Source: a virus
Taxonomy: Duplodnaviria > Heunggongvirae > Uroviricota > Caudoviricetes
DNA length: 64,000 bases
Direction: 5' to 3' (one strand)
Virus record (IMG/VR): IMGVR_UViG_2703718774_000012
The first letter of the stretch is position 1; every line of letters starts with the position of its first letter. Below, piece by piece: positions 7,061-44,202 of this stretch. The notes beneath the pieces are model-generated. The model ran no database searches. It saw only the letters and a list, made by a program, of their open reading frames with translations, and was not told where the DNA came from. The position numbers and the translations under genes are program-made.

Positions 7061-7077
7061 AGATTTATTAGAGCAAT
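7061..7077 (-). promoter_or_regulatory. C1-repressor-type operator (minus strand reads ATTGCTCTAATAAATCT), overlapping candidate -35 TTGCTC / -10 TAAAAT promoter
   Basis: 16/17 match to recalled P1 C1 operator consensus ATTGCTCTAATAAATTT; overlaps stop codon of HAD gene. Confidence 0.5.
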
Positions 7078-22447: not shown

Positions 22448-22534
22448 TGGTGGGGAGTGATGGAGTCGAACCACCCGAGTCGCAATGACAGTAGATTTAC
22501 AGTCTACCCCGCTACCCCTACGGACTAACTCCCC
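22448..22534 (-). tRNA. candidate class-II tRNA, Tyr-like (anticodon GUA), 87 nt
   Basis: Perfect 7-bp acceptor stem, anticodon stem-loop GTAGA-CTGTAAA-TCTAC, long variable arm GTCATTGCGACTCG resembling E. coli tRNA-Tyr, T-arm GGTGG-TTCGACT-CCATC, 3' ACCA; D-arm irregular. Confidence 0.45.
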
Positions 22535-22539
22535 TAAAG

Positions 22540-22614
22540 TGGCGATGGTGGGTGGATTCGAACTACCGACCAGTTGGTTAACAGCCAACTGCTCTACCGC
22601 TGAGCTACACCATC
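22540..22614 (-). tRNA. tRNA-Asn (anticodon GUU)
   Basis: 75-nt cloverleaf GATGGTGTAGCTCAGCGGTAGAGC-A-GTTGG-CTGTTAA-CCAAC...TTCGAAT...CACCATCGCCA on minus strand. Confidence 0.8.
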
Positions 22615-23267
22615 ACTTGCCGGGTACGTCTCCGGCGAGGGCTTCCACCTCCGTATGCTTTTCGGCGCACCGCGCCCTGGCTGCAATTCGGTAACAGGGG
22701 ATGCATAACCCTGGCTTCCAGCGTGATTAGCGCCTTCAGCATGACGGGATATACCCGTAAATTCGTGGAACTGTACCCAAAGTGCTGTTAAGCACCGCTG
22801 TTACGCTGAAAAGAAAACGCAACAGGAAAGGACGCTGACCAACAGATGGCCCCTTCTCGTTCATCTGGTTAATCACACCAGCGCCCTTACCTGTTGTGCC
22901 TCCCCGTTCCCTAATACACAGACGGGGACACTCTGCGGTCGATTTTTTGACGGGGGACGACTCATACCCCATGGCATCTGGCTTCTTAGGCCGCTACCAT
23001 CATCAGATCATCGTTTGCATTTACTTTAATGGTCAGTTTCTAAACCGCCGCAAAGTCGCTAACCATGACGAAAACCCTGAAAAAAACGCCCACCCGAAGA
23101 TGGGCAAACTGGACGCTCGTAACGCACTTCGGCGTTGCCACTTAGGCGCATGGTCAACCTGGCAACTCGGTGGTTTGTCTGGGAGGACTAGGCCCAGCCA
23201 TGCTTACCGCCGCGCCTGTCGCGGCTAACAGCTAAATCGCTCTATAAATCACGATTCATTGAGGTAA

Positions 23268-23296
23268 TATTACACTAATAAATTTATTAGAGCAAT
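23268..23296. promoter_or_regulatory. composite operator: perfect consensus site ATTGCTCTAATAAATTT (minus, 23280-23296) overlapped by inverted partial site; candidate promoter of tRNA-ban operon
   Basis: 17/17 match; TTGCTC -35, 17-bp spacer, TAATAT -10 on minus strand; overlaps the last codons of the methyltransferase gene. Confidence 0.6.
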
Positions 23297-26200
23297 ATAA
23301 CCAAAACGTCATGAGCTACACCTCGAGTGTCCCCCTTACAAGACACAGAACGTCTGGCAAAAAGAGGTTCCACTCTGAAGCCACTGTCATGATAAAGCTC
23401 TCTGATGTTTGGCGCGCCACTGTTAGTAATGAGAACCTTTGCACCTCGACGATGAGCATCCGTCAACAGAGACACCAGGCGTTTTTGCTCTTCAAACTTA
23501 AAGTCATGACCGGAATAGTTCGTGAATCCCTCTGTATTTGGAAGCGGTTCATACGGCGGATCGCAAAAGATGACATCTCCTTCTCCGGCAGCTTCAATCA
23601 CCGCTGCAAAATCACCGCATACAAACTCAGACCGCCCTTCCGCACCGAGGAAGGCTTCCATCTCCTGTAATGGGAAATACGGAGTTTTATACTTCCCATA
23701 ACCGACATTGAACTCACCGGCCTGGTTGTAACGCGTCAATCCGTTAAAACAATGTCGGTTCAGGAACAAAAACGCCGCTGCGCGATGTAAATCATCATAG
23801 ACTTGTTTGTTAAACGCATTCCGTACTGCCAGGTATCCTTCCTGTGTGTTGTAGTCCTGGAAGAAACGATGTGCCAGAGTGATAAGTGAATGCGCCTCGC
23901 GTTGCAGAGTCTTGTAAAAGTTAATCAGGTCAGCATTCACATCATTTAGCAGATTTTCCTGGTATCCGGCATTCATGAAGACAGCTCCGCCACCAACGAA
24001 AGGTTCAATCAGGCGCTTCCCTTCTGGCAAATAGCGAAAGATTTGTTCCAGAACACCAAATTTTCCACCAGCCCATTTGAATATGGACCGTTCGAATTCT
24101 GCCGCTGGTTTAACTTTTCGCTCTTTTGTTTCACTTCCTTCTTTCTGCCGACATACGGCCTTAGTAATCCGATCGCCAATCCAGCGCATTACTGGTATTG
24201 CCATACTATTGCCGATCGCTTTGTAACGCGGTCCGTCAGCTGCAAGCATTGCGGCCTCTTCTTCGCTTAAATCTGGATAGTGATTGTGCAGATATGCCAG
24301 TTCATCTGAATTAACTTTTTTACGCTTTTCCGTAGGGATCAACGTATGCCAATCAGGAAAACCTTGCAGCCTTTCACATTCGACAGGGGTAAGACGGCGC
24401 ATTCTACCGTCGCCGAGCAATACAATTGGTGCTTCATGGTTACATGTCAAAGTTGGTGCCGAATTATCGGTTTTTATCTCAGCCCCTCCTTGCCCATGTG
24501 CCATGGCAATTATGTTTGTATCATCGCAAGTTCTGATAGCGATGTTTGAAGTATATCTGGTAGTTTCCTTCCCCTCGCCTCTGCTCGGCGCAATATTCCG
24601 GCGCACGCCTTCGAACTCAAAAAGTACCGTTGCGGGATCGAGATCTGTTCGAGCACTTGCGACAACAAACACGCGTCGGCGTCGTTGTGCCACTCCGAAG
24701 TATTGGGCATCAAGGATTCTCCAGGCCACTTTTCGCTGCGGTCCATAAATACAACCACACTGCGGCCACTTTGGAACATGGCAACCGGTTTTGCCATCCC
24801 ACCGCCAGAACGCGTTGCTTTTTCCTGATTCAGGTCGATCACCTGGTTCAAATGGCACATCTTCTCCAGCCAATCCGGCAAGGAAACATCCGAAGGCGTT
24901 ATCTGCCGATGACAAGACTCCTGGGACATTTTCCCAGACGATAACGGCTGGTTTGAGAAATGACTCAGCCCGTTTGTCGTCAATTGCATTTGCAAGCTCC
25001 ACATACTTTAAAGTTAGCGCGCCACGCTCATCATCAAGCCCACCACGTAATCCCGCGATACTGAATGCCTGACAGTTATGGACCACCGCACCATTGAGGA
25101 TATAGGAATGATCACCTTCGACTTCTATGTTGTATACAGTATCTAGGCCTACCGATTTAAACTCTTTGACTGTTCGTAAAAGCATTCCATGAGCCAATCT
25201 TGATTTACGTGACAATTTCTGCGGGCAGATTGTTACCTGATAATAATTCCGTTGATTTACCACGCGATCCTCGATCACTTTTTTGGGCTCAACTTCAATA
25301 AAGCTGACCGAAGAAACATAACCACAAGTCTGTGACAACCCCGCAACGCCCCAAGCAAGCGCAGAACTAACACTATTAATTCTAAATCCCGCTTTACCAC
25401 TTGGTGTCCCATCAGTATCAAGATAGCCTTGTAAAAACACATGACGCAATGGATGCGACATCACCCATGCAGGGATACGCTTAGCATGGCTTAACTCGCC
25501 AAAATGTTCATTAAGCCAATTGGCATAACACGTATCATTCAAGGTTACTTTGATGCTCCCTCGGATTTCGCTTGCCACGGAAAATATGTTTTCTGGTATG
25601 CGGCAATGAAACTTTCTCAATTTCTGGCAATTTATGCCAAAAACAACCGCCTTCTTAGATTTACCTCTCCATCTCCTAATATATCCATCGCCAACATAAG
25701 CGCCCGCAAGATACATAGCCTGTTCTTCAGACAAGAACCGAGAACAAATATCTGGAAATGCAATATTGAAATTAGTTAGAGCGCACCATTGATATCCCGG
25801 CATATCACATGCTGCTCGCCATTCCGGTTCAGACAACAACTCTCTCTTAAAATATGTGCCATTTTTCCGGGTGTTTTGGGCTTTCCACCGAACAGCCAGG
25901 AAGGGATGGTCATTGGTTGTTCTTATACCTAAAGGCTGCCCAACGGCATTAAGTAACCCCGTATTAGCTATTTTTGAACCAACTCTTTTTACTTGTTGTA
26001 ACCGCCCGAGATGACTGACTACGTAATCACCAGGGCAAACATTTTCTATTGGTTTATAGCCATTTTTACAAAGAACCATATGCCCCGCGGTAAAACATGG
26101 TGTTCCCCCGACGAGCACGTCAGGGGATTCGATTTCCCCAGCCAAGACTTTTTTGGCAAGTTTTTTCATGTCGCCAAGGTTGGCAACATGGGGCCAGCGG

Positions 26201-26328
26201 AGCGCAAGAACGGCCGATGGAAAAGGCTCGATTTCAGCAAACCACGCCGGACGCATACCCAACGGTTCCCAGGCAATACTCGCGGCTTCAATTCCACTGC
26301 AAACAGATCCATAGCACAGCTCTTTCAC
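23287..26328 (-). CDS. dmt: bifunctional DNA methyltransferase: N-terminal C5-cytosine MTase (intein-interrupted) + C-terminal Dam-like N6-adenine MTase
   Basis: C5-MTase motifs: [10 protein letters not shown] (I), GGTP|...|CQAFSIAG (IV, split), VWENVPGV (ENV), [20 protein letters not shown] (X); Dam-like part [28 protein letters not shown]. Confidence 0.8.
25075..26097 (-). other. intein (341 aa) with LAGLIDADG homing-endonuclease motifs, inserted in C5-MTase motif IV
   Basis: Begins CFTAGHMVL, block B TTNDHPF, two LAGLIDADG-type motifs [10 protein letters not shown] and [11 protein letters not shown], ends [21 protein letters not shown] followed by +1 Cys; removal restores [12 protein letters not shown]. 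Confidence 0.75.
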
Positions 26329-40153: not shown

Positions 40154-40309
40154 TTACCTTTCAGATTCGTAGGCTGTGAAGACAGTGACCTCCGTCTGGC
40201 CGGTTCGGATTCGTACCTCGCAGAGGTCTTTCCTCGTTACCAGTGCCGTCACAATGACGGTTAAACAGATGACGATCAGAGCGATTAACATCGCTTTTTG
40301 CTGCTTCAT
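40154..40309 (-). CDS. hok: Hok/Gef-family type I toxin (51 aa)
   Basis: Translation MKQQKAMLIALIVICLTVIVTALVTRKDLCEVRIRTGQTEVTVFTAYESER nearly collinear with recalled Gef/Hok; not in ORF track (short). Confidence 0.8.
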   Translation of the reverse strand: MKQQKAMLIALIVICLTVIVTALVTRKDLCEVRIRTGQTEVTVFTAYESER

Positions 40310-40367
40310 AGCCTGCTTCTCCTTGACCTTTTGGTCGGTAAGAGGCTAATCTACGTATGCTAAGCAT
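40161..40367 (-). CDS. mok: mok-like overlapping reading frame (modulator of killing)
   Basis: 68-aa ORF overlapping hok out of frame; GAGG RBS upstream of its ATG. Confidence 0.5.
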   Translation of the reverse strand: MLSIRRLASYRPKGQGEAGYEAAKSDVNRSDRHLFNRHCDGTGNEERPLRGTNPNRPDGGHCLHSLRI

Positions 40368-40420
40368 AGATGTGGCCTCAGATTAATGTTAAGCGTCTTG
40401 CAGGACGCGTAATGTTATCT
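40355..40420 (+). ncRNA. candidate Sok-like antisense RNA complementary to mok leader
   Basis: Plus-strand TTGACC (40323-40328) / GCTAAT promoter-like elements facing into the mok translation-initiation region; ends not defined. Confidence 0.3.
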
Positions 40421-40490
40421 GGGGCTTTCTTCTATCTGCTTTTCGGGTAATGCCTGAAGCAGATAGCCTCAAGCACCCGCAACGATTGTA

Positions 40491-43888: not shown

Positions 43889-43938
43889 AGTTACGGCCTC
43901 ACAATCAGGTTTAACAACCTGCTACCCGCTGTCAAACA

Positions 43939-44016
43939 GGTGGCAGGACGTGACAGGGTTGACAGACTGGCGATTGTGAAACCAGCAGGCCGAAGCCTCC
44001 CCATCACGCCCCACCA
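43939..44016 (-). ncRNA. c4: c4-like antisense repressor RNA of immI (~78 nt)
   Basis: Minus strand GGTGGGGCG...CACAATC...CTGTCAAC...CCTGCCACC: loops complementary to TTGACAG and GATTGTG repeats found upstream (~44085-44105) and at the icd RBS (~43895-43935); closing stem GGTGG/CCACC. Confidence 0.5.
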
Positions 44017-44202
44017 TAATTTGGGCGTAACGCGGTTTAACGGACACAAAAATACCGCAATATCGGAAATCTGCGGTTGTCCGCACAATCATTCAGGCTG
44101 TCAAACCTGGTCGCAGAATTTGCTACGACGGCGGAACTATAAGCCTGAACGATTAAAAGGTCAATATGATGCGAAAAGATAGCATTCGCGACTTAAAAAT
44201 AC

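Follow-up and report, generated by a model that had tools for sequence, protein, structure and literature searches.

An intact phage-type tRNA-Tyr gene with a four-nucleotide connector in the ban-operon tRNA cassette of a P1-like phage-plasmid

We analyzed a 64,000-nucleotide (nt) stretch of DNA from the Caudoviricetes record IMGVR_UViG_2703718774_000012, called the window here, and focused on an 87-nt tyrosine tRNA gene that lies between genes for tRNA-Thr and tRNA-Asn. A reading of the letters alone, referred to below as the sequence-only reading, had proposed this gene as an extra Tyr-like candidate, either functional but unannotated or else decaying. We conclude that it is, in all likelihood, an intact, functional phage-type tRNA-Tyr(GUA) in the middle of an Asn-Tyr-Thr cassette, within the C1-repressed ban operon of a P1-like phage-plasmid. 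The analysis directly establishes that the gene is intact, that it belongs to a covarying family, in which operon it lies, how it is distributed and that it is already annotated. The connector between its acceptor stem and D-stem is four nucleotides long, and this is a conserved hallmark of a phage tRNA-Tyr family rather than damage to the window copy.

ARAGORN called tRNA-Tyr(gta) on the minus strand, with exactly the bounds that the sequence-only reading had given:

22448–22534, minus strand: tRNA-Tyr(GUA), 87 nt, class II (long variable arm); identified by ARAGORN, Rfam, existing annotation and family covariation

A whole-window search with the Rfam model RF00005 matched 22451–22534 at 41.9 bits, above the gathering threshold of 29 (E 1.7e-05), and the match covers model positions 1–71 at full length. 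The acceptor stem is GGGGAGU/ACUCCCC, with 7/7 base pairs (bp) formed. The anticodon stem GUAGA/UCUAC (5/5 pairs) closes the 7-nt loop CUGUAAA with its GUA anticodon, the 15-nt variable region UGUCAUUGCGACUCG forms a fully paired 3-bp stem (GUC/GAC), and the T-arm GGUGG-UUCGACU-CCAUC has all five of its stem pairs. These parts had been read as canonical from the letters, and every one of their stems is indeed fully paired. The 3' ACCA noted there is a discriminator A followed by a gene-encoded CCA, and the first pair is G1-C83, equivalent to G1-C72. The identity elements of E. coli tyrosyl-tRNA synthetase (TyrRS) are A73, G1-C72 and a long class II variable arm. All sequence features of a bacterial-type tRNA-Tyr are thus in place, including GUA in a 7-nt loop, and neither the broken stems nor the lost identity elements of a pseudogene were seen. 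Single-sequence folding energy was uninformative against shuffles (z = -0.67), with a minimum-free-energy structure that is the cloverleaf with a 4-bp D-stem. Since the folding energy does not stand out, it is the covariance model and the comparative data that argue for the gene being real.

The D-arm region is where the gene departs from the canonical form. A canonical tRNA has a 2-nt connector (positions 8 and 9) between acceptor stem and D-stem; the window gene has UAGU, and the Rfam alignment places a 2-nt insertion there. The sequence-only reading was right to call this region irregular but counted three connector nucleotides instead of four. We rejected a 3-nt connector with a 5-bp D-stem, because it needs a U11.G27 pair that is possible in only 22 of 77 relatives. 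The D-stem, described as weak from the letters, instead has four of four pairs (CCGU/GCGG: C-G, C-G, G-C and U.G) and a 7-nt loop, AGGGGUA, of the canonical A14/G18G19/A21 type. Position 26 is G.

A similarity search with the 87-mer matched 1,524 phage records, 1,359 of them at 80% coverage or more. Identity is 90–93% in T4-like and rV5-like phages and 78–85% in T5-like, FelixO1-like and Klebsiella phages, and most of the matching records label the gene tRNA-Tyr. Some family members are labelled tRNA-Val or tRNA-OTHER, or are unannotated (for example, among the OL656107 and NC_055831 matches). The unusual connector probably lowers model scores and explains this occasional mis-annotation. An Enterococcus phage match at 78% identity received no tRNA call from ARAGORN and was left out of the family set. 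In phage LL12, a 99-nt tRNA-like gene in an rV5-like array (1098–1196 of locus L007, minus strand) was given a four-base anticodon (atcc) by ARAGORN; the LL12 record labels it tRNA-Lys with the note “isotype prediction inconsistent.”

We compared 13 relatives taken from similarity searches without any structural condition, a set that includes the window sequence and two other P1-like elements. All 13 have UA plus 2–3 extra nucleotides, a CCGU-type stem, an AGRGGUA-type loop and a GCGG-type stem, with D-stem variants CUGU in 8sent1748 and UCGU in CitS1. The window gene fits this family pattern (UA plus NN, a CCGU/GCGG-type 4-bp D-stem and a 7–8-nt D-loop) with UAGU, CCGU, AGGGGUA and GCGG. We then scanned IMG/VR using a pattern made only of the 3' half of the D-arm and the anticodon loop, which returned 120 loci. 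These were parsed structurally from the T-loop as anchor, by locating the 7-mer able to pair with the acceptor strand on the 3' side, which left 77 distinct members of the family. A 4-nt connector occurs in 73 of them and a 5-nt one in the other 4. Their stems are nearly always fully paired, the discriminator A73 is present in all 78 parsed relatives, and G1-C72 is present in 69/77. Across the IMG/VR loci, the family Tyr gene was found in more than 60 different tRNA-array contexts.

The 77-sequence alignment strongly favors a maintained cloverleaf. Standard pairs fill 99.0% of its cells, and both sides change in 19 of the 24 pairs. The covariation score is 0.549, compared to 0.07–0.11 when the partners are slid by 1–3 columns, and none of 500 shuffles reached the values of the alignment. 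All five cloverleaf helices are supported, including covariation at 7/7 acceptor pairs and 3/3 variable-stem pairs, with the caveat that the 3' strand of the D-stem belonged to the search pattern. Within the connector, the strongest signal of mutual information for the second extra nucleotide is with position 26 (0.50 bit, against 1.1–1.6 bit for helix pairs): C occurs with U in 11 of 12 cases and A with G in 32 of 38. This correlation may reflect a tertiary contact, or it may just reflect shared ancestry. Our literature search found no description of a conserved 4-nt connector in the phage tRNA-Tyr family, for which it provides a clean sequence signature.

The same pattern gave 121 matches in species-representative bacterial assemblies, of which 51 with a T-loop-like motif were parsed. 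At least 6/7 acceptor pairs were formed in 38 of these 51, which therefore parse as tRNAs, and 33 of the 38 have the 4-nt connector. Twenty of those 33 copies lie in arrays of 3–20 tRNAs within 3 kilobases (kb), a density typical of prophages or phage contigs. Assemblies with this architecture came from Lachnospiraceae, Bacteroidota, Tahibacter, Gammaproteobacteria and others; some of their contigs carry 14–20 tRNAs per 3 kb and are probably prophages, or phage contigs binned into metagenome-assembled genomes. As the architecture occurs in such diverse bacterial assemblies, mostly within dense arrays, we do not claim that the family is strictly confined to phages; the architecture travels with the tRNA-Tyr family.

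The window gene itself is of an ordinary kind and already known. Positions 22300–22700 are 100% identical to Escherichia phage vB_EcoM-Ro157c2YLVW (Punavirus; MH160767/NC_050153), and the MH160767 record annotates tRNA-Asn(gtt), tRNA-Tyr(gta), tRNA-Thr(tgt) and tRNA-Met(cat). On E. coli plasmids, the RefSeq labels are tRNA-Tyr, tRNA-Thr and tRNA-Asn in 40/40 cases among the matches listed. The NCBI pipeline makes its tRNA calls with tRNAscan-SE, so the tRNAscan-SE check suggested by the sequence-only reading has in effect been passed many times. Its phrase “unannotated functional tRNA” therefore holds for function, which the intact stems, both detectors, the covariation and the validated relatives support, and fails for annotation. 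We found no paper on the tRNA-Tyr gene of P1-like elements or on phage vB_EcoM-Ro157c2YLVW, and a comparative paper on P1-like elements (PMC9603915) makes no mention of tRNA. We regard the 4-nt connector and the presence of a Tyr gene in P1-like phage-plasmids as modest leads, not discoveries.

The three-gene block (22368–22614) matches 331 records in complete E. coli genomes. Coverage is at least 80%, which requires the presence of the Tyr gene, in 264 of them, corresponding to 262 of 5,426 complete genomes; in PLSDB, 237 of 307 matching plasmids reach the same coverage. The Asn-Tyr-Thr cassette is 100% identical in dozens of independent plasmids, at least 40 of them among the E. coli genome matches listed, and at least 50 plasmids reach 99% identity or more. 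Overall, the Tyr gene is present on about 80% of those P1-like plasmids in complete E. coli genomes that have the tRNA cluster. In P1 and P7, tRNA-Asn is followed directly by tRNA-Thr, and these two phages represent a minority form among P1-like elements. The statement in the sequence-only reading that the annotated tRNAs of P1-type phages are limited to Asn, Thr and Ile is accurate for P1 and P7; the majority of natural P1-like plasmids depart from it. In this respect the two laboratory phages P1 and P7 are atypical, and work on host range or defense evasion based on P1vir misses the Tyr cargo.

The cassette and its surroundings are organized as follows:

22540–22614, minus strand: tRNA-Asn(GUU), first gene of the cassette (ARAGORN, Rfam)
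22535–22539, minus strand: Asn-Tyr spacer, 5 nt, CUUUA on the RNA strand
22444–22447, minus strand: Tyr-Thr spacer, 4 nt, CAUU on the RNA strand
22368–22443, minus strand: tRNA-Thr(UGU), last gene of the cassette (ARAGORN, Rfam)
23287–26328, minus strand: dmt
23269–23296, no strand assigned: bivalent C1 operator Op(ban), two overlapping 17-mers (consensus search, 0 and 2 mismatches)
23087–23106, minus strand: terminator-like hairpin, 8 pairs then T7, between Op(ban) and tRNA-Asn; kept in P1 and P7
20450–21277, minus strand: SPFH/Band-7 protein, 275 amino acids (aa) (Pfam PF01145, E 1e-30)
20347–20422, minus strand: tRNA with CAU anticodon, operon-distal, a short way upstream of the ban helicase gene (ARAGORN)
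18702–20072, minus strand: DnaB-type helicase, the Ban equivalent (DnaB domains)

On the coding strand, the order is dmt, Op(ban), the hairpin, Asn-Tyr-Thr, small open reading frames (ORFs), the SPFH/Band-7 gene, tRNA(cat) and the DnaB-type helicase. The cluster therefore sits between dmt and ban, downstream of Op(ban), as in a P1-type ban operon. Op(ban) lies about 655 nt upstream of tRNA-Asn, and its sequence is that of the annotated Op(ban) of P7, whose record notes that the operator regulates tRNA genes. The leader from Op(ban) to tRNA-Asn, including the hairpin, is 98.4% identical to P1 and 95.2% identical to P7. Because operator and leader match those phages, the window cluster belongs to the same C1-controlled operon as the P1 tRNAs, and we infer from this sequence match that it would be expressed on induction. 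C1-operator-like 17-mers with up to 3 mismatches number nine in the window, compared to 0.33 expected by chance; they lie at 7061, 9153, 9202, 12817, 23269, 23280, 27579, 42532 and 44203 and correspond to the P1-type C1 regulon.

Like the P1/P7 ban-operon cluster (Asn, Thr ... Ile), the window cluster has the same position, flanks that are 95–98% identical, and the same operator and hairpin. The tRNA with the CAU anticodon is labelled tRNA-Ile in P7 and tRNA-Met(cat) in MH160767. Downstream of the cluster, the P1/P7 genes tciA/terB, tciB and tciC are replaced in the window by an SPFH/Band-7 gene pair (20450–21494, minus strand). The SPFH/Band-7 protein is labelled “putative serine protease” in the phage record, and the overlapping 78-aa ORF has no family match. 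PADLOC found no defense-gene matches among the co-operonic ORFs, including the 275-aa and 78-aa proteins. Between the SPFH genes and tRNA-Thr (21528–21647, minus strand) lies a sub-threshold Rfam match to the small RNA STnc100, at 38 bits against a gathering threshold of 47 (E 5e-06 in a 3.1-kb search).

Alignment of the cluster suggests how the window and P1 came to differ. The flanks match P1 and P7 up to the tRNA genes, but the window Asn and Thr alleles differ from those of P1/P7 and are nearer to the alleles of N4-like phages. The N4-like Asn-Ser-Thr cluster (e.g., vB_EcoP_3HA13) is 76% identical over the three-gene block, with equal gene lengths and equal 5-nt and 4-nt spacers, and its Asn allele is nearer to that of the window than the Asn of P1 is. 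Its middle gene, however, is a 90-nt tRNA-Ser(UGA) with a standard 2-nt connector. Homology of the window Tyr gene to this tRNA-Ser was rejected, as the megablast match rides on Asn and Thr while the Ser sequence and connector differ. We also rejected a simple gain of Tyr by insertion into the Asn-Thr arrangement of P1, since the flanking alleles differ as well and a mosaic element exists. This mosaic, the CMS-2020a phage-plasmid L005 (SCU-107), combines window-type Asn and Tyr with P1-type Thr, which places recombination breakpoints inside the tRNA genes. On the evidence of these alignments, the difference between window and P1 is a block exchange of ~250 nt, in either direction, with breakpoints inside tRNA genes. 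It offers a concrete example of a phage tRNA array shuffled by recombination within tRNA genes. The Asn-Tyr-Thr arrangement occurs at 17 IMG/VR loci.

We also observed an 87-nt tRNA-Ser(tga) candidate downstream of tRNA-Thr, identical in P7 and both CMS-2020a phage-plasmids and unannotated in the P7 record:

2536–2622 of L002 (P7, AF503408), minus strand: tRNA-Ser(tga) candidate (ARAGORN)
2430–2516 of L004: tRNA-Ser(tga) candidate (ARAGORN)
2709–2795 of L005: tRNA-Ser(tga) candidate (ARAGORN)

Neither the window nor P1 has a counterpart of this tRNA-Ser(UGA)-like gene, and tRNA cargo therefore varies among P1-like elements.

Taken as a working tRNA, which its sequence makes very probable, the window gene could serve either of two purposes that the data allow us to compare. 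The first is codon supply. We counted codons in the long ORFs of the window and, with the same treatment, in a 50-kb K-12 sample:

ACA (Thr): 15.5 per 1000 in the window, 5.4 in the K-12 sample, 2.9x
ATA (Ile): 10.8 per 1000 in the window, 2.2 in the K-12 sample, 4.9x
AAT (Asn): 25.8 per 1000 in the window, 13.1 in the K-12 sample, ~2x
Tyr (TAT + TAC): 29.8 per 1000 in the window, 25.5 in the K-12 sample, 1.17x

TAT alone stands at 18.7 per 1000 in the window and 14.1 in the K-12 sample. Since Tyr codons are barely enriched and a single E. coli tRNA-Tyr reads both of them, codon supply is a weak rationale for this gene, and it accounts better for the other P1 tRNAs than for Tyr.

The second purpose is counter-defense. 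PtuAB of retron-Eco7 depletes E. coli tRNA-Tyr, and the tRNA-Tyr of T5/SP15 rescues phage from this system, with anticodon and stems needed (Azam et al. 2024, PMC11555353). Septu EcB88 cuts the variable arm of E. coli tRNA-Tyr at C48/A49 and T6 tRNA-Tyr at C48 (Chihara et al. 2026, PMC13096335). T6 escapes Septu through amplification of its tRNA-Tyr gene, a dosage effect, while T4, which has no tRNA-Tyr, cannot; T6 tRNA-Tyr is visible on Northern blots (PMC13096335). Because these T5 and T6 homologs replenish tRNA-Tyr destroyed by defense systems, they offer the better-supported analogy for the role of the window gene. We infer expression, charging and a counter-defense role for it in P1-like elements. 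Lifting of C1 repression, by induction or infection, would allow transcription of the ban operon, and host tRNA-processing enzymes would cut the polycistronic precursor at the 4–5-nt spacers, with CCA already present. Host TyrRS would charge the tRNA through A73, G1-C72, the G34-U35 anticodon and the long variable arm, and the charged tRNA would decode UAU/UAC. The tRNA-Tyr pool would thereby be topped up or protected during lytic growth against Septu and retron-Eco7 PtuAB. That counter-defense is the main selective benefit of the gene is a tentative proposal, to which we give somewhat less than even chances, though more than to codon supply. Placed in a C1-controlled operon, the gene would represent temperate-phage counter-defense against Septu or retron-Eco7. 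In addition, the non-canonical core shared by the phage family (T5, T6, rV5-like, FelixO1-like, P1-like and others) could alter recognition by nucleases or modification enzymes while TyrRS charging is kept. That both hold together, with the connector a recognition-altering adaptation and the P1-like gene a temperate counter-defense, is speculative and on balance doubtful. If true, possession of the Tyr gene could help explain host-range differences between P1 and wild P1-like elements.

Several observations weigh against a functional, defense-related gene, and some are shared with competing explanations. The tRNA-Tyr scores ~26 bits below its neighbors in Rfam, which reach 68–70 bits (the three other window tRNAs span 64.7–69.9 bits with RF00005), a shortfall caused by the connector insertion and the long arm. 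Three singleton P1-like IMG/VR copies (L044, L056 and L129) have stem mismatches, and P1 and P7 thrive without the gene. The terminator-like hairpin upstream makes the level of transcription uncertain, and no sigma-70-like promoter was found near the cluster, while T5 uses a very strong dedicated promoter. The variable arm is the same in T6 tRNA-Tyr, which Septu EcB88 cuts (PMC13096335), and any protection would thus hinge on dosage. The absence of any paper on the gene, mentioned above, also counts here. The low score, the non-canonical connector, the mismatched singletons and the absence from P1 and P7 are what one would cite for a decaying, non-functional remnant of a horizontally acquired phage tRNA, the second option of the sequence-only reading. 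We consider this extremely improbable. The feature that raised suspicion is conserved throughout the phage tRNA-Tyr family: the connector is non-canonical in 77/77 relatives, including the experimentally active T5 and T6 tRNAs. All stems of the window copy are fully paired, with A73, G1-C72, GUA and the long arm intact. The cassette is unchanged in dozens of plasmids and present in most P1-like plasmids, and allele differences among P1-like copies fall mostly in the D-loop, position 26 and the variable loop, or else preserve pairing.

A tRNA-shaped RNA with a mainly non-decoding role, such as a decoy for tRNA-Tyr nucleases or a recombination hotspot, might account for the breakpoints inside tRNA genes, the mosaic CMS-2020a element and the many array contexts of the family. 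We find this very unlikely as well: tRNA genes recombine because they are conserved, which does not make recombination their function, and a decoding tRNA is expected to show just such strict conservation of its anticodon loop, A73 and every stem. Furthermore, changing the anticodon of SP15 tRNA-Tyr abolished rescue, from which its authors concluded that a function in protein synthesis is required (PMC11555353). A harder alternative to dismiss is a functional tRNA-Tyr whose sole role is codon supply during lytic growth, the classic proposal for the Asn, Thr(ACA) and Ile(AUA) tRNAs of P1, with no link to host defense. Of the hypotheses on phage tRNAs, codon supply has the widest acceptance (discussion in PMC11555353); the gene shares its operon with tRNAs whose codons are clearly enriched, and Tyr codons are themselves slightly enriched. 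The Tyr enrichment is nevertheless small, there is no rare-codon bottleneck given one E. coli tRNA-Tyr species with ~3 gene copies that reads both codons, and the benefit demonstrated for the T5/T6 homologs is against tRNA-Tyr-cleaving defenses. We rate this explanation as rather unlikely, though still to be taken seriously.

Elsewhere in the window, Rfam gave gathering-level matches to IS009 RNA, sok antitoxin RNA, and C4 antisense RNA with its a1/b1 targets, which are consistent with a P1-like phage-plasmid backbone:

58607–58805, plus strand: IS009 RNA
40304–40478, minus strand: sok antitoxin RNA
43936–44021, minus strand: C4 antisense RNA
44090–44142, minus strand: a1/b1 targets of C4

Among the known systems, T6 tRNA-Tyr (NC_054907, 66468–66554) is 89.7% identical to the window gene over 87 nt. 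The two share the 4-nt-connector architecture, the same type of D-stem and D-loop, A73 and an encoded CCA. Their 15-nt variable regions are identical, including C48, the Septu EcB88 cut site, and the window gene carries G46-U47-C48-A49 at the same linear positions as the region targeted by Septu in E. coli and T6. The T-arms differ at one position with pairing kept, the connector is UAUC in T6 rather than UAGU, and the anticodon-stem sequences differ. The settings differ as well. T6 is a virulent T-even phage whose tRNA-Tyr lies in an array beside the segB homing endonuclease, where tandem amplification is possible; the window gene belongs to a temperate phage-plasmid, is under C1/Op(ban) control and has no homing endonuclease nearby.

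The T5 gene, tRNAY(GUA) (NC_005859, 35340–35427), is 83.5% identical to the window gene. It has the 4-nt connector UAUU and the same variable region and T-arm, while the acceptor, D-stem (CUGU/GCAG in T5) and anticodon-stem sequences differ. T5 tRNA-Tyr is driven by an exceptionally strong dedicated promoter (PMC11555353), and none is evident at the window cluster. The T5 record (NC_005859) notes that tRNAY with a replaced anticodon is an effective amber suppressor. Together with the anticodon dependence of rescue by SP15 tRNA-Tyr, this lends indirect support to tyrosine charging of the window tRNA.

For E. coli, the tRNA-Tyr reference sequence was confirmed at 100% identity in 5,426/5,426 genomes, with a median of 3 copies. 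The likeness to E. coli tRNA-Tyr noted from the letters is only partial. Both are class II tRNAs with an identical anticodon loop (CUGUAAA), G1-C72, A73 and a common GUCAU start to the variable arm, yet overall identity (tyrT/tyrV/tyrU; measured on tyrT) is 71.1%. The variable loop is 3 nt in E. coli and 5 nt in the window. Acceptor stem and anticodon stem are 20 nt apart in both, and the interval is divided differently: in E. coli tRNA-Tyr, a 2-nt connector leads to a 3-bp D-stem that closes a large D-loop, whereas in the phage type a connector of 4 nt leads to a D-stem of 4 bp and a 7–8-nt loop, so that the phage D-helix lies 2 nt further 3' than that of the host.

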